From: Eledone cirrhosa | Taxonomy: Eukaryota | DNA: 64,000 bases | Direction: 5' to 3' | NCBI GenBank assembly: GCA_964016885.1 | Contig: OZ024747.1 | Span: 73,594,001 to 73,658,000, forward strand | Shown here: positions 2,996 through 62,560 of the stretch, piece after piece | Position numbering within the stretch: position 1 is the stretch's first letter | Layout of the letters: each line of letters opens with the position of its first letter | Position numbers and translations under genes: made by a program | The notes under the pieces: model-generated | Databases searched by the model: none | Seen by the model: only the letters and a program-made list of their open reading frames with translations | What the model was told of the DNA's origin: nothing

Positions 2996-5437
2996 TTAAT
3001 TAGGTTTATAATATTTAAATGTTTTTTTTAGTTTATGATTACACGATATAATTAATTCCTGTCGTTTATTTAATAAGATATCCTTAGACTTCATTATTTC
3101 AAATAGTTCTTGGGAACATAATCTACATTCATTTCTATTATTTTGATAAGGGGTGGCTCTTTTGAGCACACTCCAGGTCAAATCATATTTTATATTCTTA
3201 TTTTTATAACTATTGATTTTTTCTGCTAGAGATGTTGTATTAGCCAGTGCGGCATTTTTAAAACTATGCTTGTGGGTATTAAACCTTGTCTTTAAATTGT
3301 TAGAGGTAGCTCCTATATATGAGCAAATAGAATCTTTAGTTTTAACATTACATTTATAGACTATGTTGTTAACAAGACAATTCCCTTTTAATGGGCAGTT
3401 TGCTTTGTTTCTACAGTTACATCCTTTCGTTAATTCTGTATTTGAGGAGATATTATGGTTAATTTGATGTACTGGTGGTATACTTATGGTTTTCTTACAT
3501 TTATATGCATTATATGCACTTATATTTTGTTTTATGTTATTTGTTGTAGAGTATGAGAATTTAACTGTAGACCTATTTAAGATTTGATGGTATTTGTGGT
3601 TTGGCGGGAAGTTTTTCTCAAGGATATAAAAAAATTTTTTAGCAATATTATCCTTAACTTGTAAATTAAAAGGAGCATTATACCAAGTAACCCGTCTATT
3701 ACGGTTTCTATGTTGTTTATTATTTTTATTATTTTTATAGGTTGTATCGTGATTTTTACTAGGAGGATTAATGTTAATGATCTCACCACAACTATTTTTA
3801 GTTATATTTGTAGATTTAGGTGTTTTATCCTTTTTATTAGGAGTTTTATTATTAATATTTATTATAGTTGTATGATGAGTAGTTTTTTGAGAGTTACTAT
3901 ACTTTATATTAGAAGATTTAGTATTTTGGGGTATAGTGTGGGTGGCATTTAGGTGTGTACTTTTCATTTGGTGTTTGTTGGTAATATTATGTTGTATGCT
4001 TTCAGTATTTTTAGTAGAAGGTATATACTCTAATCTATTTTTGTGGCCACTTCTATCTAGAGCTTCGTTATAGAAGGTCGCATTTTTATCAAATACATCT
4101 TGGTTAGAAGAAAGGTTAGAAATTCTAAGTGATATATTATATGCAAGGTTTTTAAGGATAGATTTAGGGTGATTAGATTGTGAGTGTATGTAATGTAAGT
4201 TTTGGTTAGGTTTATGGTAAGGTTGGTAGATACCCGTAGCTAAATCTAAAGTTATATCTAGGAAATTTACTACTTTACTTGTTTTTTCAAAAGTAATATT
4301 AAGATTATAATAGTCTTTAAGGAAAGTTCTAATATGTTTTTTGTTTTTTTCGATTTCTGAAAGGCTAAGGTTGTTAGAAAGAAGAAGACAGTCATCACGA
4401 TATAAACCACCTTTGAGGTGGGGAAAAGAGGCATTTATGTTGAAAAGGAGAAAGAGGCCCACAAGATCAGTAATTTGGGCGGAATCGCTTGAACCCATAG
4501 TAATATCAAAAAGATTACTGTATGTGTTTCTGGTCCAGTATTCATTCTGAAATTCAATAAGTGTTAGTCTAGCATGTGTAATAATGTTAATGTCATCCAA
4601 AGTTAAGTTAGATCTATTTTTAGCAAATATCAATGCTTTGTTCAGGAGTATAGGTGATATAGAAGAATAGTAATTATCTATATCAAATTGTAGGAAAGAA
4701 GCAGAAGATTTACACCTAATATTTTTAAACCAGTTAATTACCTGGGAGGTGTTTTCCCAGAGTGGTAAAATAACGTGTTTTCTTATTTGTGGGATGACTC
4801 TATCTAAAATTTTTTTGCTAATTATTCCAATATCTGATTTGGAGGGACATATAAGTCTAATAGAAGGATTTGAGTTAAAGTTAGATTTGTGATCTTTCAG
4901 GTTGAAGTGTGGTCTTTTCAATGCCAAAGGTTCAGTTCTATCTTCAATGTTTAGTTTTTTTACTATGTTGTGTGTTTTGTTGTTGATGTTGGTGAGTGAC
5001 ACATTATTAGATTTTTTATAATTTTTTCTGAGTTCTTTATATATGAACTCGTTATAATGTTCAATATCCATATGATACAAGTTACCAGTTTTGTCCGAGT
5101 GGACATGGATTTTTTTAGACTTTTTTAGGTCCAATAGGGTAGAATCAAGGTCCTTTTGAAAGACGGATTTATACTTTTTAAATTTGAGGTGTTTAATTAA
5201 ATTAAAAAGGTCTTTCTCGAAGTCTTCAAGTAAAAAGTTGTGTGGTGGATTCTTGTAAGTATTGAAATCATACATATATTTCCGATCTGCTTGTTTAGAT
5301 TTTCTATCGAAGTGGTAGGCTCTCCATCTAACCCTTCTGATAAAATTATTAGTTTTCTGAATCATAAGGAGTAAGAAGTCGTCCTTAGAAGGTATTGGTA
5401 TGTTTTTTAAGGAGGTTCCTAAATATTGTTTTTCCAT
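2996..5437 (-). CDS. Penelope-like (Naiad-like) reverse transcriptase + GIY-YIG endonuclease, intact, 813 aa from the first ATG
   Basis: N-term SLKNIPIP..RRVRWRA; RT motifs FDIDNYYSSI, FDITMGSSDSAQITDLVG, GLYRDD, VNFLDITL; CNCRNKANCPLKGNC knuckle; IVY..YIG..R..H nuclease; CRLC. Track start 5458 is TTG, first ATG is 5437. Confidence 0.92.
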   Translation of the reverse strand: MEKQYLGTSLKNIPIPSKDDFLLLMIQKTNNFIRRVRWRAYHFDRKSKQADRKYMYDFNTYKNPPHNFLLEDFEKDLFNLIKHLKFKKYKSVFQKDLDSTLLDLKKSKKIHVHSDKTGNLYHMDIEHYNEFIYKELRKNYKKSNNVSLTNINNKTHNIVKKLNIEDRTEPLALKRPHFNLKDHKSNFNSNPSIRLICPSKSDIGIISKKILDRVIPQIRKHVILPLWENTSQVINWFKNIRCKSSASFLQFDIDNYYSSISPILLNKALIFAKNRSNLTLDDINIITHARLTLIEFQNEYWTRNTYSNLFDITMGSSDSAQITDLVGLFLLFNINASFPHLKGGLYRDDCLLLSNNLSLSEIEKNKKHIRTFLKDYYNLNITFEKTSKVVNFLDITLDLATGIYQPYHKPNQNLHYIHSQSNHPKSILKNLAYNISLRISNLSSNQDVFDKNATFYNEALDRSGHKNRLEYIPSTKNTESIQHNITNKHQMKSTHLNATHTIPQNTKSSNIKYSNSQKTTHHTTIININNKTPNKKDKTPKSTNITKNSCGEIININPPSKNHDTTYKNNKNNKQHRNRNRRVTWYNAPFNLQVKDNIAKKFFYILEKNFPPNHKYHQILNRSTVKFSYSTTNNIKQNISAYNAYKCKKTISIPPVHQINHNISSNTELTKGCNCRNKANCPLKGNCLVNNIVYKCNVKTKDSICSYIGATSNNLKTRFNTHKHSFKNAALANTTSLAEKINSYKNKNIKYDLTWSVLKRATPYQNNRNECRLCSQELFEIMKSKDILLNKRQELIISCNHKLKKTFKYYKPN

Positions 5438-5780
5438 TGTGATATGGATGATGGACAATTGAAAGAGCTCAACTAAATGTATATGGGTTTACAAAATCAT
5501 ACATATATATATGTTTATACATAAATATAAAATTAATACACACATACAGTACAAAAATACGAATATTTCCGTGAAAATAGGAGCAAAATTATGTAGATAA
5601 ATCTACCAAGAGTTTACGGTAGTGTCCAATCCGTATGAAGAACTCAATGTATTCCGGATATCATGGAAAGAAGAGATGTAATGAAAAACCACTTTCGGTG
5701 AAAGATAAACGGTATACAGAGTCAAGATAAAATATTAAACAAATAATGAATAAACAATTCCTTATATTAAACAAAAAAAG

Positions 5781-5935
5781 TTCATTATTTAACGATCGTT
5801 TCTAGGATATATATGTGTTAGAATTGGTATGCATATTCAACAGATCTATGTACAAAATTATACAAAATTATACAAATTATCAAGATTAAATATACATACC
5901 AAACACATATATACGCCGTCTTCAGAAATAATGAA
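5781..5935 (-). ncRNA. Hammerhead ribozyme, inverted copy
   Basis: Reverse complement of 16466-16620. Confidence 0.85.
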
Positions 5936-6239
5936 GTATATTTATTGATAATAACAACAATTCAAAATTTCAGTTCAAAATTGACCAATGAAAACACAAA
6001 GGGTTAAATGCAGTTCGGTGTGTGTATATACATGTAAAACCCTTACACATATTTTACAAAAATGTATGTATAATTTGTATACGCATACTAAAAGGATGGA
6101 TGCAAATGTCATGTAATCATAGAATGGGATGTGTTTTGGATATATACCTAGTTAATATATTCTATGCAATTTTTTGAAAAAGATATGTATATGTATATGT
6201 GTATGTGTATGTGTGTGTGTGTATGTATATGTGTATGTA

Positions 6240-6278
<39 letters not shown>

Positions 6279-7399
6279 ATGTGTGTATATATATGTATAT
6301 ATGTATGTGTATGTATGTGTATATGTATGCGTATTAATTTTGATTTCTATTTGCATATAATTATATTATGCTATTGATGAAATACAATATCTGCTTTATG
6401 TATTGTATACCTAATTAACATATACTATTGAAATAAATTTATAATTTTTAATTTAGTTAACATATAATTTATATTCTACTACCGATGTAATACTTTATTT
6501 TATTTTTATTTGTGTTTTTTTTCCCTATTACTAAATTCATTTCCTAATATTGATACCATAACGTTTTTAACTTTAATTTAGTTATACTGTAATTAATAAT
6601 CTACTACTGTTTAACTTCAAAATTCTGCTTCAAATATTATAAACCTAACTAATTTACACCTTAGAAATCAATATGTTGACTATCTTTGGTTTAGTTAACA
6701 TATGATTAATGGTATACTTGTTTATTTTGAGATGCATAGATTTTGCCTTAGTTCTTGTTTGTTGTATTTCCTAACACTGAAAATATGTAAGAACATACAT
6801 TGGATAAAGATGCGGAAAATATTCTGTTTCTTGAAACATATATTTACTTTGATCCCCTTCTCCAAACCCCCCCTTTCCCCCATACTATTATCATCTGTAT
6901 TTGTAAGCGTCTATGTATGAATATATATGTAGGTAGGTGTCTATATAGGTTTGGGTATTTATATCTAAATATAAAAATACATATATGCGCATGCAAATAT
7001 GAATGTAAGATTGCGTGTGTATATATGAGTGTGTATATGTATGTATATATGTGTATATATGCATTATATATGTATGTGTATGTGAATGTGTGTACGTATA
7101 TGTGTATGTATGTGTATATATGTGTATATATGTGTATGCATGTATATATAGGAATATATATATGTATATATATATGTATATGTATATGCGTGTGTATGTA
7201 TGTGTGTGTATGTGTGTTGTATATATATGTATGTCTCTCTATTTATATGTTTATCTTCGTATCTATGTGATATATGTGTGTGTGTGTGCATGTATGCATA
7301 TGTATGTGTTTATGTGTATGTGTGTGTGTGTGTGTATATATGTGTGTGTGCACACACACACATATATATATGTGAGTGTGTATATGTGTCTGTGTATAT

Positions 7400-8803: not shown

Positions 8804-9621
8804 ATATATATATATATGTATATATCTTTATTATTTATTTTTTATATATATGTGTATGTGTGTATGTGTTGCGTGTGTGTGTGTGTATATATATATCTTT
8901 ATATATGTGTATGTGTATGTTCGTGTAGGTGTATGTGTGTGTATGACTGTATATGTATGTGTGTATGTGTGTATGCGTAAATATTTCTATGTGTGTGTAC
9001 ATGTATGTATGTGTATATATCTGTATGTGTATGTATATTATATTATATTTATTATATTTTATTGTTTTATTTTTTTATTTTTCTTAATTTATAGATACAT
9101 TTATATTAGGCAGTCTGCTCAGACAGTTGAATACTGACCCCTTCCCCTCCCCTCCCACCTAATTTCTGTATCTTGATCTAAAAATGTGTGTGCCAGTGTT
9201 TTATGTGAGTGAATTAATATCCATGTGCTTATGATTTTATATCCACATATATAAATGTGAGTGGGGGTGTGTGTGTGTTTGTATGTTCGTGGTTATGTGT
9301 ATATTTATGCATATACGTGCGTGTATGTGTGATTGTACTGATATGTGTGAGTATGAAAAAATATATTTATATACTTGACTTCATATGTATCAATGCGCAT
9401 CTTATCTGCGCATTGTAAGCTTACAGAGACATTAACCTTGAAATTTTGTATTTGCATCCATCCTTTTAGTATGCGTATACAAATTATACATACATTTTTG
9501 TAAAATATGTGTAAGGGTTTTACATGTATATACACACACCGAACTGCATTTAACCCTTTGTGTTTTCATTGGTCAATTTTGAACTGAAATTTTGAATTGT
9601 TGTTATTATCAATAAATATAC

Positions 9622-9776
9622 TTCATTATTTCTGAAGACGGCGTATATGTGTGTTTGGTATGTATATTTAATCTTGATAATTTGTATAATTTTGTATAAT
9701 TTTGTACATAGATCTGTTGAATATGCATACCAATTCTAACACATATATATCCTAGAAACGATCGTTAAATAATGAA
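9622..9776 (+). ncRNA. Type-I hammerhead ribozyme with extended stem II and palindromic mini stem III
   Basis: TTCATTATTT-CTGAAGA-[116-nt hairpin region]-GAAAC-GATC-GTT-AAATAATGAA; perfect 10-bp stem I; predicted cut after 9766. Confidence 0.85.
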
Positions 9777-10119
9777 CTTTTTTTGTTTAATATAAGGAAT
9801 TGTTTATTCATTATTTGTTTAATATTTTATCTTGACTCTGTATACCGTTTATCTTTCACCGAAAGTGGTTTTTCATTACATCTCTTCTTTCCATGATATC
9901 CGGAATACATTGAGTTCTTCATACGGATTGGACACTACCGTAAACTCTTGGTAGATTTATCTACATAATTTTGCTCCTATTTTCACGGAAATATTCGTAT
10001 TTTTGTACTGTATGTGTGTATTAATTTTATATTTATGTATAAACATATATATATGTATGATTTTGTAAACCCATATACATTTAGTTGAGCTCTTTCAATT
10101 GTCCATCATCCATATCACA

Positions 10120-12543
10120 ATGGAAAAACAATATTTAGGAACCTCCTTAAAAAACATACCAATACCTTCTAAGGACGACTTCTTACTCCTTATGATTCAG
10201 AAAACTAATAATTTTATCAGAAGGGTTAGATGGAGAGCCTACCACTTCGATAGAAAATCTAAACAAGCAGATCGGAAATATATGTATGATTTCAATACTT
10301 ACAAGAATCCACCACACAACTTTTTACTTGAAGACTTCGAGAAAGACCTTTTTAATTTAATTAAACACCTCAAATTTAAAAAGTATAAATCCGTCTTTCA
10401 AAAGGACCTTGATTCTACCCTATTGGACCTAAAAAAGTCTAAAAATATCCATGTCCACTCGGACAAAACTGGTAACTTGTATCATATGGATATTGAACAT
10501 TATAACGAGTTCATATATAAAGAACTCAGAAAAAATTATAAAAAATCTAATAATGTGTCACTCACCAACATCAACAACAAAACACACAACATAGTAAAAA
10601 AACTAAACATTGAAGATAGAACTGAACCTTTGGCATTGAAAAGACCACACTTCAACCTGAAAGATCACAAATCTAACTTTAACTCAAATCCTTCTATTAG
10701 ACTTATATGTCCCTCCAAATCAGATATTGGAATAATTAGCAAAAAAATTTTAGATAGAGTCATCCCACAAATAAGAAAACACGTTATTTTACCACTCTGG
10801 GAAAACACCTCCCAGGTAATTAACTGGTTTAAAAATATTAGGTGTAAATCTTCTGCTTCTTTCCTACAATTTGATATAGATAATTACTATTCTTCTATAT
10901 CACCTATACTCCTGAACAAAGCATTGATATTTGCTAAAAATAGATCTAACTTAACTTTGGATGACATTAACATTATTACACATGCTAGACTAACACTTAT
11001 TGAATTTCAGAATGAATACTGGACCAGAAACACATACAGTAATCTTTTTGATATTACTATGGGTTCAAGCGATTCCGCCCAAATTACTGATCTTGTGGGC
11101 CTCTTTCTCCTTTTCAACATAAATGCCTCTTTTCCCCACCTCAAAGGTGGTTTATATCGTGATGACTGTCTTCTTCTTTCTAACAACCTTAGCCTTTCAA
11201 AAATCGAAAAAAACAAAAAACATATTAGAACTTTCCTTAAAGACTATTATAATCTTAATATTACTTTTGAAAAAACAAGTAAAGTAGTAAATTTCCTAGA
11301 TATAACTTTAGATTTAGCTACGGGTATCTACCAACCTTACCATAAACCTAACCAAAACTTACATTACATACACTCACAATCTAATCACCCTAAATCTATC
11401 CTTAAAAACCTTGCATATAATATATCACTTAGAATTTCTAACCTTTCTTCTAACCAAGATGTATTTGATAAAAATGCGACCTTCTATAACGAAGCTCTAG
11501 ATAGAAGTGGCCACAAAAATAGATTAGAGTATATACCTTCTACTAAAAATACTGAAAGCATACAACATAATATTACCAACAAACACCAAATGAAAAGTAC
11601 ACACCTAAATGCCACCCACACTATACCCCAAAATACTAAATCTTCTAATATAAAGTATAGTAACTCTCAAAAAACTACTCATCATACAACTATAATAAAT
11701 ATTAATAATAAAACTCCTAATAAAAAGGATAAAACACCTAAATCTACAAATATAACTAAAAATAGTTGTGGTGAGATCATTAACATTAATCCTCCTAGTA
11801 AAAATCACGATACAACCTATAAAAATAATAAAAATAATAAACAACATAGAAACCGTAATAGACGGGTTACTTGGTATAATGCTCCTTTTAATTTACAAGT
11901 TAAGGATAATATTGCTAAAAAATTTTTTTATATCCTTGAGAAAAACTTCCCGCCAAACCACAAATACCATCAAATCTTAAATAGGTCTACAGTTAAATTC
12001 TCATACTCTACAACAAATAACATAAAACAAAATATAAGTGCATATAATGCATATAAATGTAAGAAAACCATAAGTATACCACCAGTACATCAAATTAACC
12101 ATAATATCTCCTCAAATACAGAATTAACGAAAGGATGTAACTGTAGAAACAAAGCAAACTGCCCATTAAAAGGGAATTGTCTTGTTAACAACATAGTCTA
12201 TAAATGTAATGTTAAAACTAAAGATTCTATTTGCTCATATATAGGAGCTACCTCTAACAATTTTAAGACAAGGTTTAATACCCACAAGCATAGTTTTAAA
12301 AATGCCGCACTGGCTAATACAACATCTCTAGCAGAAAAAATCAATAGTTATAAAAATAAGAATATAAAATATGATTTGACCTGGAGTGTGCTCAAAAGAG
12401 CCACCCCTTATCAAAATAATAGAAATGAATGTAGATTATGTTCCCAAGAACTATTTGAAATAATGAAGTCTAAGGATATCTTATTAAATAAACGACAGGA
12501 ATTAATTATATCGTGTAATCATAAACTAAAAAAAAACATTTAA
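10120..12543 (+). CDS. Second copy of the Naiad-like RT/GIY-YIG ORF with a +1 A frameshift in the last codons
   Basis: Same protein except three substitutions (SKKIH/SKNIH, SEIEK/SKIEK, NNLKT/NNFKT) and the end KLKKNI* instead of KLKKTFKYYKPN* (A-run ~12528-12537). Confidence 0.92.
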   Translation: MEKQYLGTSLKNIPIPSKDDFLLLMIQKTNNFIRRVRWRAYHFDRKSKQADRKYMYDFNTYKNPPHNFLLEDFEKDLFNLIKHLKFKKYKSVFQKDLDSTLLDLKKSKNIHVHSDKTGNLYHMDIEHYNEFIYKELRKNYKKSNNVSLTNINNKTHNIVKKLNIEDRTEPLALKRPHFNLKDHKSNFNSNPSIRLICPSKSDIGIISKKILDRVIPQIRKHVILPLWENTSQVINWFKNIRCKSSASFLQFDIDNYYSSISPILLNKALIFAKNRSNLTLDDINIITHARLTLIEFQNEYWTRNTYSNLFDITMGSSDSAQITDLVGLFLLFNINASFPHLKGGLYRDDCLLLSNNLSLSKIEKNKKHIRTFLKDYYNLNITFEKTSKVVNFLDITLDLATGIYQPYHKPNQNLHYIHSQSNHPKSILKNLAYNISLRISNLSSNQDVFDKNATFYNEALDRSGHKNRLEYIPSTKNTESIQHNITNKHQMKSTHLNATHTIPQNTKSSNIKYSNSQKTTHHTTIININNKTPNKKDKTPKSTNITKNSCGEIININPPSKNHDTTYKNNKNNKQHRNRNRRVTWYNAPFNLQVKDNIAKKFFYILEKNFPPNHKYHQILNRSTVKFSYSTTNNIKQNISAYNAYKCKKTISIPPVHQINHNISSNTELTKGCNCRNKANCPLKGNCLVNNIVYKCNVKTKDSICSYIGATSNNFKTRFNTHKHSFKNAALANTTSLAEKINSYKNKNIKYDLTWSVLKRATPYQNNRNECRLCSQELFEIMKSKDILLNKRQELIISCNHKLKKNI

Positions 12544-18807: not shown

Positions 18808-19140
<333 letters not shown>

Positions 19141-34749: not shown

Positions 34750-34824
<75 letters not shown>

Positions 34825-34829
<5 letters not shown>

Positions 34830-35020
34830 AAAAAGTATGACCCCGACGGTAGAGCTCAAGCCGTTTCGACGGCTATTTCTCGACGAGTCCAGAAATAGCC
34901 ATCGAAACGGCTTGAGCTCTGCCGTCGGGGTCATACTTTTTCCTATTTCCCACTCTACTACCCTAAGTATTGAGTACTCTGGTGCGTTATGGTCCATCTG
35001 GTTCCTTACCACAATTCCTT

Positions 35021-35027
<7 letters not shown>
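34825..35027. mobile_element. Fold-back half-hammerhead element in (TA)n
   Basis: 56-bp arms 34825-34880 / 34891-34946; each arm reads GAAAC-GG(C/T)..(G/A)CC-GTC-GGGGTCATAC, the 3' half of an HHR; ~80-nt tail. Confidence 0.75.
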
Positions 35028-35112
<85 letters not shown>

Positions 35113-46938: not shown

Positions 46939-47330
46939 CAAGTGTACATACAAAAAAGTCTAGATCAACACAATCTGTGTGTGTGTGTGAATGTTTGTGT
47001 GTGTATGTGTTTTTGTCTAAGTGTTTGAAGGCATGTCATTTATGATTAGGCTGTCCGACTCTATAAATATATATAAAGTGTGGATTTGTAAGCATAATAC
47101 TTATTCTGTGAGGCTGTTTCTCTTAGCCTAATTATATTTTTCACTGCAAAATATAAGATATGTGGTTTCCTGTGATATTGATAAACTGAAACATGTCTGA
47201 GGTCCTGAATTTTAAGATTCTATTATTTAATTGAACGATCATAGATTCGTAGAGTCGCATGTTCGCGTTACATATTATATATCGATTTCTTTTGATATAT
47301 GTATATAAACATATATATATATATATATAT

Positions 47331-47500
47331 GTAAAAGTAAACAGAAATAACAATACAATCGGTACAGTATATGGAAGGGATATATTAGGTTAACGCTTGA
47401 TATAGCTGGAAGAGGGTCTTAAATTTTCGGACGCTAGTCCTTCATCAGAAGAAAGAATGAGAAATAAGATAGATTGAGGGGACGGGTGGGTTGGAATTGG
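47331..47500 (-). mobile_element. PLE 3'-end fragment with a minimal HHR (47417-47452)
   Basis: Reverse-complement homolog of 52948-53122; stem III mutated (GAAAATTT); ends in (TA)n. Confidence 0.75.
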
Positions 47501-48032
47501 AAAAAATGTCTTTAGATAAAATATATTTATATAGTTCAAGTAAACGAGAAAACAGATATACAATAAGTCTTATTAGTTTCCCGTTTTACATCGAAAAAGT
47601 ATTATATATAATTGATTTAGTAAATGGAGCTAAATATATTGTTAGGATTTCGTATTGGCTTTGAAATTAAGAACAGGAAGATGGAATATGTTCCTATTCT
47701 GTGGCTGCTCATGTAAGGAATAACTTTTCACATTTCTAATATTTGCAATCTATGGAATATGTTCAATTTTTCTTTCCTGAACATGCAATAGAAAAAATTA
47801 CATTAGAACTTATATACTATAACGATTCCAGTTGAAATATAAAAGACGACGGGAGGAAATCACGTCGGAGTTGCATCCTGTCAACATATTAAACCTATTT
47901 CTAGACAACGTACACAGTTTATTTCTAAGTCTTTTCAATATGATATCTCGCGACATCTCTTCTCTGTTCTGTACTTTTAGTCTCTCTCTGTCTCTCTGTC
48001 TCTCTCTCTCACTCTCTCTTTCTGTCCAACTC

Positions 48033-48646: not shown

Positions 48647-48726
<80 letters not shown>

Positions 48727-48767
48727 CGAAACATAAGTCAATTGCATGAACTCATAATCCTTCATTT

Positions 48768-48823
48768 ACTGCTATATATATTTCGATGATAGCCATTGAA
48801 TGGCTATGACCTCATCAGGCAGT
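48768..48823 (-). ncRNA. Type-I hammerhead in a ~170-bp insert between (TA)n tracts
   Basis: Minus strand: ACTGC-CTGATGA-ggtcATAGCCAttcaaTGGCTATcatc-GAAA-TATATA-TA-GCAGT. Confidence 0.8.
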
Positions 48824-48886
48824 TAGTCAGTTATTAGATATGCCAGCTCTCTGTTTATAGTGTTGATGATATCAGAGCATTGGTAC

Positions 48887-48943
<57 letters not shown>

Positions 48944-51231: not shown

Positions 51232-52994
51232 TATGTATGTATGTATGTATGTATGTATGGGATTAAGCACTTTTGATTGTTGAATGGAAGTTTCCGTTCA
51301 ATAATTGATTCGACTTAAAACTGAGTGTTGTACTTAGATGTAATAAATTTCTACTCTATACATTAAAGTATCAAGTACTGAATTGAATAAGGTATTTCTA
51401 GTAATTTAACTTGTGTTATCTTATCTATGTATATATGTGTGTGTGTGTCATTGTCTATTTCTGTATGTGTTTAACTGGCTGAATATTTCGTGTCTACGAA
51501 ATTATCTCCCTTCAGTTATCTTATGTCAATATTTCGTTCTTTCGTATTCTTTCTAAACATCTTCCATTCACACATTATCTCTTTCTTCTCTTACTCTTTT
51601 GCTATATTCCTCCCTTTCACTCTCTATTTTTCTCCTCCCACTCTCTCCTTATATTTCTCCCTTTCACTCTCTCCTATATCTCTCATAAGCATTCTATCTC
51701 CACATTTCTTTCATCGCTTTATTTCTGTTTCCTTGTTTGATCCCTTACACGTTCTTTATATCAGGTCTCTTCGCATTTTAAATATTACTAATAGTTTCCC
51801 CTGTAGCAACATGCTGCATTTAGCATCTGACTTAGACTCTGTAACCCGTCAAACTGATGATTACATGCTGTCAATGTATTGTTTTTAATAGACTTAACAT
51901 TGAACCCATATTACTTAAAATCTGTGGATTTCTAAATCCCCGAAACAATTCTATTTTTTACTGCTATCAGGACTGAGCTGGCGGTCCGCAAGAATGAGCA
52001 TCGCTCGTTGGAATGGTTGTCTCCGTGCATCTCACATGTTATGTTCTGAAAGCCAGCTTTTACAATTCTGTCAACAGGAGGCACAACCATTATAATGGAC
52101 GTGAGATGTGAACATTCTCAATTTTGGTATTTTACACAGTTTCATTTTAAGGAATAGATGACTCGAGTTTCGACATATTTACAGCTTTATTTCTCACTAT
52201 GACACTTTTCAGTTCTTTACTTATGTTACTCGTCCTGACAAAAATATTTGTAAACAAACACACGCACGCGCGTACACATGACCCATATATACATGCATAA
52301 ATATAGCATCACAAACACACAGGCATACACATAACCTTCAAATACTTGCATAAACACACAAACATACACACGTACACATGACCCAAAAATATTAGCATAC
52401 ACATACACACACATACGTACTTGCACACACACAACGATCATACATACACACTTACAAACATACGCATACAAGCGCGCGCCCAGACACAAACGTAGATACA
52501 ACACGTGATATTTCTCAGTTGCCCTCACTAATTCAACAGTTGTCTCCTTTCCCATAATGCACTTTCATATTTTCAATCTCTCACCAACTTCCTGTCCGTT
52601 TCTCTCTGTTTCTCACTCTTTCTGTCAATATGTACGTACTCACACAGATACACAAATACACCCCCCACACACACAGACACACACATACACACACACACAC
52701 TCACACACGCACTCACACAGACACACACAGACACGTATATATGAAAGATATATGTATATTGGTTATGTGTGTGTCTGTATATATATATATTTTATATATA
52801 TATAATATATATATGTATATATATATGTATATATAAAATATATATATGTATATATATATGTATATATATATATATATGTATATATATGTATACATATGTA
52901 TATATATGTATATATAAGCATTTATGTATATGTATATATATATATATCAATTCCATCCCGCCTGTCCCCTTAATCTATTTTAGTTCTCATTCTT

Positions 52995-53030
52995 TCTTCT
53001 GATGAAGGACTAGCGTCCGAAACGTTAAGA
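52995..53030 (+). ncRNA. Canonical minimal hammerhead in PLE fragment 52948-53122
   Basis: TCTT-CTGATGA-a-GGAC-tagc-GTCC-GAAAC-GTT-AAGA; palindromic AACGTT stem III. Confidence 0.85.
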
Positions 53031-53516
53031 CCCCTTCCTGCTATATCAAGCGTTAACCTAATATATACCTTCCATATACTCTACTGATCCGATTGTGTTG
53101 TTATTTCTGTTTACCTTTTACATATGTATATATGTGTGTGTATATATATATAATAGAAAGCGAAAAATCAGTGATGCATCTGAACTCAATTTATTGTGTG
53201 TTACAATTGTTTCCCCGGCGGACAGCTCGAGACGCGATCATTGTGTGGATCTGTCTGATTCTGGAGCCGCAGATTCGACGGACACGTCTAATGATTTCGG
53301 AGCATATTCACTCACTGGGGTATCTGACCCTTCTGGGCCAGTACCTTCAAAAACTTCATCCACTTCGCGAGTCCTGCAATTGGCCGCTGGTTGTCGACGT
53401 CATCATAATTCTGACCATAGGTACCAGTTTGCTGACCATCAGGGCGTTAGCTGTCCCATGTCTGCTACACTTCAATAAATTTGTTTAGCAGATATGGGAC
53501 AGCTAACGCTGTGTGA

Positions 53517-61937: not shown

Positions 61938-62116
61938 GGAAAAGATTCAGGACCCCGACGGCTGAGCTCCGGCCGTTTCGACAGCTATTTCTGAAATAGC
62001 TGTCGAAATGGCCGGAGCTCAACCGTTGGGGTCCTGACTCTTTTCATATTAGCCACTCTGATGCCCGATGTATCGAGTACTTATGGTCCACCAAGTATCT
62101 TAACACACTTTCTCTG

Positions 62117-62118
<2 letters not shown>
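61938..62118. mobile_element. Fold-back half-hammerhead element in (TA)n, relative of 34825-35027
   Basis: Arms 61938-61991 / 61993-62046 with a 1-nt centre; left arm on minus reads GAAAC-GGC-cggagctca-GCC-GTC-GGGG. Confidence 0.75.
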
Positions 62119-62300: not shown

Positions 62301-62553
62301 TATTGAAGTTTGCTTGAAGCATTGTGGAATAATAAATAAATATCTTTAAGTCGTTTGGAAGCCTCGACAATGCAAATGGGTAAATCTGCGGGTAACAAGA
62401 TCCGGTGGTGGAGTGAGAGATGTAAGTGGGTGTGTCTTTACATACCACGCATCTCAACGTACATCCACTTACATCTCTCTCTCTCCACCACCGGATCTTC
62501 TTACCCGGAGATTTACCCATTTGCATTGTCGAGGCTTCCAAACGACTTAAAGA

Positions 62554-62560
<7 letters not shown>
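62296..62560. mobile_element. Fold-back element in (TA)n without a recognisable HHR
   Basis: ~98-bp arms 62336-62433 / 62461-62560; mirror ORF-track peptides MEASTMQMGKS. Confidence 0.75.

Follow-up and report, generated by a model that had tools for sequence, protein, structure and literature searches.

The stretch of DNA analyzed here (the window; 64,000 nucleotides of Eledone cirrhosa, contig OZ024747.1, positions 73,594,001 to 73,658,000) contains a short fold-back element lying between two (TA)n runs (Table 1). Its palindromic part (34825-34946) is 122 nt long and 93% self-complementary, and its RNA is predicted to fold at -115 kcal/mol (z = -16), a value equaled by 0 of 200 shuffled sequences. 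Each arm contains only the 3' half of a hammerhead, with helix III of the tailed arm bearing a palindromic GAGCTC loop. Neither CTGANGA nor the variant core described below occurs on either strand of the element or of its relative at 61938-62117 (71% identical to it), and with both strands checked the window element itself holds no complete hammerhead core; it also lacks the 33-nt insert that interrupts helix II in the parent. These observations agree with the first-pass annotation, which had read from the letters two half-hammerhead arms devoid of CTGANGA, a tail on one arm, (TA)n at both ends and the same geometry in the relative. That annotation had also placed the palindrome axis on the helix II hairpin; the fold-back is real, but the left-arm 'ggctatttct' taken for one strand of that hairpin is the reverse complement of the right arm.

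Table 1 Features of the fold-back element and its relative in the window
Feature	Position	Strand	Interpretation	Basis
(TA)n target, left flank	34796..34827	.		sequence
Tail-less arm, inverted, end A at hammerhead stem I base	34828..34884	-		
Extra G, parent has T	34885..34885	+	candidate RNA cap copy	family statistics
Tailed arm, first part, up to end A at 34943	34886..34943	+		
Helix II 3' strand, in tailed arm	34893..34900	+		
GAAAC, in tailed arm	34904..34908	+		
Cleavage triplet GTC, in tailed arm	34924..34926	+		
Stem I strand, in tailed arm	34927..34931	+		
80-nt one-sided tail between end A and end B	34944..35023	+		
(TA)n target, right flank	35026..35094	.		sequence
Sister-family insertion, head-to-head tail-less/tailed layout as in window element	61938..62117	+		

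Elsewhere in the window, an unrelated palindrome of about 220 bp (62339-62557; 88% self-complementary) lies between (TA)n runs, has a short one-sided extension and is possibly another head-to-head stub of a Penelope-like element (PLE). Two copies of one insert in TA-rich repeats (52940-53120 on the + strand and 47330-47510 on the - strand) hold a complete minimal hammerhead (CTGATGA, short helix II and GAAA) and are likely pseudo-LTR fragments of another PLE family. An insert at 48723-48891 (- strand), also between (TA)n runs, carries a hammerhead-like motif (CTGATGA, long helix II and GAAA), and a diverged fold-back at 18913-19136 (77% over 135 nt) has one-sided extra sequence and the same type of flanks. 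The first 16,700 nt contain large near-perfect inverted duplications (for example, 3022-6107 versus 9450-12535; 3,086 nt, 100% identical), which represent either a recent nested inversion-duplication or a feature of the assembly.

The 3.0-Gb genome contains 10,480 exact matches to a 31-letter arm motif (control, 0) and 2,478 to a 30-mer of the sister-family insertion at 61938-62117. About nine in ten motif matches are stubs ending at one place. Some matches belong to a longer element that continues upstream; a motif taken from its upstream portion has 1,183 matches, and such parents make up about 11% of arm matches in both families, a rough figure obtained with different patterns. In eight longer stretches, ORF pieces encode a reverse transcriptase (RT) region, a CxCx5C linker and a GIY-YIG nuclease, and a hammerhead lies just 5' of the ORF in the same orientation; in L084-L089 the pieces show an RT YRDD region followed by VIY...YIG. 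All parent copies read are broken by frameshifts. Their motifs comprise RWR (with R for K), DKT, CxCx5C (CNCPDRSLC), CxxC (CNLC) and CxH (CKH), and the ORF looks, by eye, like the Hydra proteins in the available part of the supplement of PMC8557442. Pfam returned 0 families for three of three ORF pieces, a search of solved structures with the pieces returned nothing and the six homologs recovered are unnamed or uncharacterized. On these motifs, the parent is an EN+ PLE with RT and C-terminal GIY-YIG in one ORF, and it is best assigned to the Hydra type by comparison with the clade definition as given in the available text of PMC8557442 (section 11).

One locus, L086, has the classic layout, with a direct pseudo-LTR repeat (3390-3780 and 6984-7373) plus an inverted copy; its tandem unit of 3,593 bp includes an unrelated, extremely high-copy short repeat near 5864-6050, where sequencing depth is about 1,000-fold above the rest. 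A partial tandem, an inverted 5'-truncated copy and a one-sided tail are thus all present (the first two in L086, and tail versus no tail in 70 of the 73 pairs described below), and the latter two belong to standard PLE anatomy as far as the accessible portions of PMC8557442 and PMC3846280 describe it. In the parent, the 80-nt tail region runs on into the ORF (L086 and L089), and at L086:3720-4020 the frame is open from the putative RNA start through the half hammerhead and the tail, about 300 nt with no in-frame ATG. Unrelated LINE-like RT fragments adjoin several parent copies (L084:8147-9001, L085:7761-9399, L089:457-1078 and L090:1531-2137).

The sequence upstream of the arms in the parent is predicted to fold, together with them, into stems I, II and III (z = -2.2), helix II being interrupted by the 33-nt insert. 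In 17 sequences from the two families, 89% of cells are paired and helix II differs between families by three double-sided changes, which represent few independent events. A parent bearing a full hammerhead, as the first-pass annotation had predicted, was reached by motif search from the arm, and it is the same element that encodes RT and GIY-YIG. The predicted CTGANGA core did not materialize: among 30 family-1 parent loci, 20 read TTGANAA, 7 CTGAGAA and 0 CTGANGA, and by hand count, 91 of the first 100 rows listed for family 2 also read TTGANAA. Searching the genome with the CTGANGA pattern gave 23 matches, two of them parent-like by eye and the others mostly chance matches or mutated arms. 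No hammerhead was present among the 150 of 320 Rfam matches listed for the window, and Rfam returned none for one parent copy, with three weak unrelated matches, so the assignment rests on motif, fold and covariation. By these three lines, the parent appears to carry a full type I hammerhead with a mostly U3-A8 core, a variant described for schistosome PLEs in the accessible text of PMC4209133.

We then mapped 180 arms in 84 stretches against a natural copy, setting end A to 0. The stretches came from 100 listed motif sites (first 41 Mb of one contig), neighboring copies and the window element, with five duplicate loci removed (L009, L011, L014, L024 and L028) and alignments shorter than 18 nt or not reaching -25 dropped; all samples in this study were drawn within the first 76 Mb of a single contig and required an exact motif match. 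The 3' ends of the arms fall at two fixed points, one at the foot of stem I (A) and the other 80 nt downstream of it (B), and TATATA adjoins 171 of the 180 (76 of 82 tail-less and 95 of 98 tailed arms), revealing an insertion preference for (TA)n as in the Hydra clade. Together with the PLE parent, these fixed ends at (TA)n support the earlier proposal that a retroelement primed in (TA)n made the structure. Arms of the two kinds are matched, in that 70 of 73 head-to-head pairs are A+B, with two A+A and one B+B (P = 7e-18 versus free choice). The window element is one such head-to-head pair of very short copies, one ending at A and one at B.

The upstream ends are also concentrated. Positions -62 to -49 hold the ends of 131 of the 148 arms that reach -45, while the next 48 nt hold only seven and 18 of the 180 arms end between -44 and 0. 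The palindrome axes accordingly cluster within helix II, as the first-pass annotation had anticipated for stem II. In both types the modal end is -57 (17 A and 16 B arms), a single A inside the helix II insert, and unpaired arms behave likewise; in the window element the tailed arm starts at this A, while the tail-less arm is exact to -52, or to -56 with one substitution. The number of arms falls from 74 reaching -57 to 30 reaching -59 and 17 reaching -63, and across the genome, the base immediately preceding -57 differs from the parent in 4,062 arms, while 2,133 reach -62. Insertions in which the two arms both match exactly to -57 number 874; of the first 50, about 24 (by eye) have an arm to -59 or beyond, and the stop edge is therefore a cluster of positions instead of one base. 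The sister family behaves similarly, with 45 of 46 arms ending at the homologous A, before it or at most 2 nt beyond (the exception is the reference parent) and a few ending about 12 nt further upstream, although most of the insert sequence differs between families. Few tailed arms (two or three of 98) end at the start of the cleavage product (-16/-17).

In three sequencing runs of unrecorded kind, all derived from one sample, opposite-strand joints were found at -57 of L086 and depth was about 100-fold greater just downstream, which argues that the junctions are not an assembly artifact, although the runs may be the assembly's own source and thus non-independent. Two oddities of individual arms were also seen: helix III is missing from arms of L005 and L029 (family 1) and of L173 (family 2), the skip falling between two short repeats on either side of it, and at L006:1460-1481 and L101:1051-1075 long T runs lie directly upstream of arms ending at -60, which suggests that RT stutters on a U tract at the end of its template.

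These maps bear on whether the palindromes propagate by themselves, either as a miniature inverted-repeat element (MITE) moved by a DNA transposase or as a tailed arm that is re-transcribed and moved by PLE protein. The 10,480 exact motif matches would fit such a family, as would one junction type that recurs in about nine of the 73 pairs, and the internal promoter of D. virilis Penelope, as described in the accessible text of PMC2377424, means that tailed arms might be transcribed. Against this, the ends are A and B with no symmetric terminal repeats, junctions mostly differ between copies while the recurrent one is found in both arm orientations, and arm lengths grade continuously up to full ORF-bearing copies. 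Any target-site duplication would be masked by the (TA)n runs. We consider self-propagation highly improbable. The asymmetric ends, the variable junctions and the grading into ORF-bearing PLE copies led us to reject the DNA-transposon MITE in particular, in line with the retroelement origin proposed in the first-pass annotation. Non-LTR retrozymes were rejected as well: as described in the available part of 10.64898/2026.07.22.740005, these consist of tandem units that each contain a complete hammerhead, whereas the arms here are inverted half-hammerheads.

The first-pass annotation had further proposed that a single cDNA snaps back at stem II and copies itself. In its fullest form, a cDNA primed at the tail end would be copied to helix II, self-prime and be copied to end A, where TAT pairs with (TA)n. 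Such a route predicts both the A+B asymmetry (70 of 73 pairs) and variants common to the two arms, and it has precedents in the self-priming proposed for palindromic PLE junctions (available text of PMC3846280) and in snap-back after full-length cDNA synthesis described for R2 (available text of PMC11371274). It also requires the tailed arm to extend further than its partner, since the snap-back arm must be nested, and this was found in 24 of 70 A+B pairs. The A arm, however, extends further by at least 2 nt in 34 of the 70 (the remaining 12 agree within 1 nt), by at least 10 nt in 17, and in six pairs the arms share no sequence; snap-back of a single tailed cDNA cannot yield the 34. A arms moreover end at -57 as often as B arms, which leaves no loop, and spacers of zero or one base between complete arms occur in 13 of 50 insertions. 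The junction expected from helix II-primed snap-back had 0 exact matches in the genome and 0 fuzzy matches in 128 loci, and end A also closes multi-kb ORF-bearing arms (L084 and L086).

Minor variants common to both arms number 32 in 41 pairs, against a shuffled mean of 4.9 and maximum of 15; the other 29 of the 70 pairs had arms too short or gapped for this test. These variants fit one template RNA or one source, and they also fit snap-back for part of the class with the longer B arm: 22 fall in 21 such pairs versus 3 in 13, a concentration that leaves room for some true snap-backs, possibly up to 24 of 70 pairs. Later flipping of the center or deletion within the palindrome could also have turned some B-further junctions into A-further ones. 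Snap-back as the general route is nonetheless largely refuted and, as the explanation of the family, is in our judgment quite unlikely; rather than self-priming, the junction counts favor a pair of cDNAs, each primed by the target at its own internal start site.

If two cDNAs are made, their common stop needs a cause. The A at -57 belongs to TTAGTC (TTAGTT in family 2), which we take to resemble an initiator element, and the parent has T at -58. Arms that end here often carry an untemplated base, which in family 1 was G in 12 of 18 cases in the first sample. A second sample took 42 arms from 40 further places, chosen in the order of listing; here G made up 14 of 23 cases, and the five C cases comprise four re-copies of one recurrent junction word and one base shared between arms. 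Pooled, G precedes -57 in 26 of 41 cases; in control arms ending at -56 to -49 the adjoining base is G in only 3 of 28, or 3 of 12 with T left out, and against the latter the excess gives P = 0.024. Counted by hand in the first 50 of the 874 insertions noted above, in which each arm is exact to -57 (about six of which overlap the earlier samples), 11 of 11 single-base spacers are G:C, three spacers read C-x-G and two are empty. The base before -57 in the first 100 rows listed is G in 50, C in 43 and A in 7, with the C class mostly one recurrent junction. The G excess holds for family 1, while the sister family shows none in its counts (6 G, 7 C and 2 A among 15 cases).

The extra G and the common stop together favor run-off at a capped RNA start, by analogy with L1 insertions, whose extra 5' G is attributed to copying of the mRNA cap in the accessible portion of PMC11702581; D. 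virilis Penelope RNA likewise starts within the pseudo-LTR from an internal promoter (available text of PMC2377424). Two other signals were considered and set aside. A TATA-like word lies 31 nt upstream of -57 in family 1 and is not kept in family 2. The word TTTAG at -60 to -56 resembles a splice acceptor, with a branch-point-like word upstream, but a spliced or trans-spliced template was ruled out, as the bases upstream of the stop share one G and no exon or leader sequence.

Alternatively, both primings could occur on a longer RNA, with RT stalling at a hairpin or bound protein in the helix II insert and adding an untemplated C. The stop falls within a hairpin helix of 4 bp (CTAA/TTAG), on its 3' strand, and both families keep these pairs, which makes a structural stall possible; the spread of arm ends over -62 to -49, the passage of long arms through -57 without a scar and the sister-family base counts all fit this reading. 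The same G would also result if RT added a C, untemplated, wherever a template ends. By contrast, few arms (the 18 of 180 noted above) stop in the strands of stem I, helix III and the 9-bp helix II, although these structures are stronger, and stalling accounts poorly for the hard upstream edge at a pyrimidine-A step and for the single-base spacers that are uniformly G:C. We regard stalling as unlikely, and run-off at the RNA start as the better account of the stop.

Taken together, the window element is probably a stub of a Hydra-type PLE in which both nicked target strands primed at two internal sites, both cDNAs ran off a capped RNA and the products were end-joined. The GIY-YIG nuclease would cut both (TA)n strands, as occurs in vitro for another PLE; priming from one target 3' end would occur at site A and from the other at site B, which lies 80 nt downstream. 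To judge from the stop, transcription would begin within the helix II insert, chiefly at the A at -57 and less often around -60 to -62, and copying would end after about 57 and 137 nt, often with one C added opposite the cap. End joining of the two cDNAs at their 3' ends would follow, accompanied by trimming of 0-6 nt, by microhomology or by short insertions of templated sequence. On this scheme the position of the RNA start leaves only half of the hammerhead in the copies, as a side effect and not as the hinge of the mechanism, and most stubs are probably new products of parent RNA that give rise to no further copies. The structure itself is of a known kind and probably without function; what is added here is statistical, namely the A+B rule, the common stop and the extra G. 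Thousands of junctions can separate models of PLE insertion, forming a genome-scale natural record of insertion intermediates, and they point to the likely start of the element's RNA within a few bases from DNA alone.

The same scheme might be extended, tentatively and with considerable doubt on our part, by viewing the stubs as the strong-stop DNA of a PLE. [quoted passage not shown] If true, the PLE hammerhead gains a job, and pseudo-LTRs, tail and inverted copy are explained in one scheme. Strand transfer should carry the cap G over into long arms, but the 31 of them whose base at -58 had changed showed no such carry-over: 21 had C, 7 had A and 3 had G, a distribution that ordinary mutation would give. 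Long arms are scarless at -57, which implies either priming at the downstream A/B copy on a longer RNA or a clean jump. In LTR elements, minus-strand strong-stop DNA is primed near the RNA 5' end by a tRNA and runs off at the cap, yielding a short product of fixed length that is later transferred to the RNA 3' end. In the PLE the primer would instead be nicked target DNA, and the transfer is hypothetical.

Penelope-like elements are the closest retroelement relatives of telomerase. In the open-access literature we found no report of the common 5' stop, the cap signature or the A+B rule in PLE insertions, and the origin of inverted copies and tails is called unresolved in the available parts of three studies (PMC8557442, section 15; PMC3846280, Discussion; PMC11167929). 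Based on the accessible text of Craig et al. 2021 (PMC8557442), one of the closest known systems is the Hydra clade of PLEs with a C-terminal endonuclease, which shares RW(K/R), DKT, the CxCx5C linker and the CxxC and CxH motifs in the nuclease, as well as a hammerhead, a (TA)n target, an inverted 5'-truncated copy and a one-sided tail. Unlike that clade, whose members are generally <3 kb with tails of 30-40 nt, the present element is about 3.6 kb (from one tandem copy, including a foreign insert), has an 80-nt tail, a U3-A8 core and a 33-nt helix II insert, and is represented mostly by stubs.

The in vitro system PAc (Poseidon, Anolis; Frangieh et al. 2024, PMC11167929) offers a biochemical parallel, as far as the available text goes. 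Both strands are cut and extended, as proposed here, uncleaved RNA serves as the template, and the tail is delimited by two sites, internal to the RNA and downstream of the hammerhead, at which RT starts. PAc shows no strand difference in start site, in contrast to the A+B arrangement of 70 of 73 pairs here, and the common 5' stop, the cap signature and the joining of inverted copies are not addressed in the portion of that paper available. The PLEs of Arkhipova et al. 2013 (PMC3846280, accessible sections) have an inverted pseudo-LTR, an optional tail and palindromic junctions like those in E. cirrhosa; that study invokes self-priming on an antisense template, whereas the counts here favor two cDNAs from sense RNA. 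L1 twin priming, as presented in the available part of PMC11702581, is alike in that the second target end primes internally, the products are joined through microhomology and an extra cap G appears. The L1 segments are adjacent and barely overlap, while in the present family two fixed internal sites usually lead to copying of the same 50-57 nt, resulting in a palindrome.
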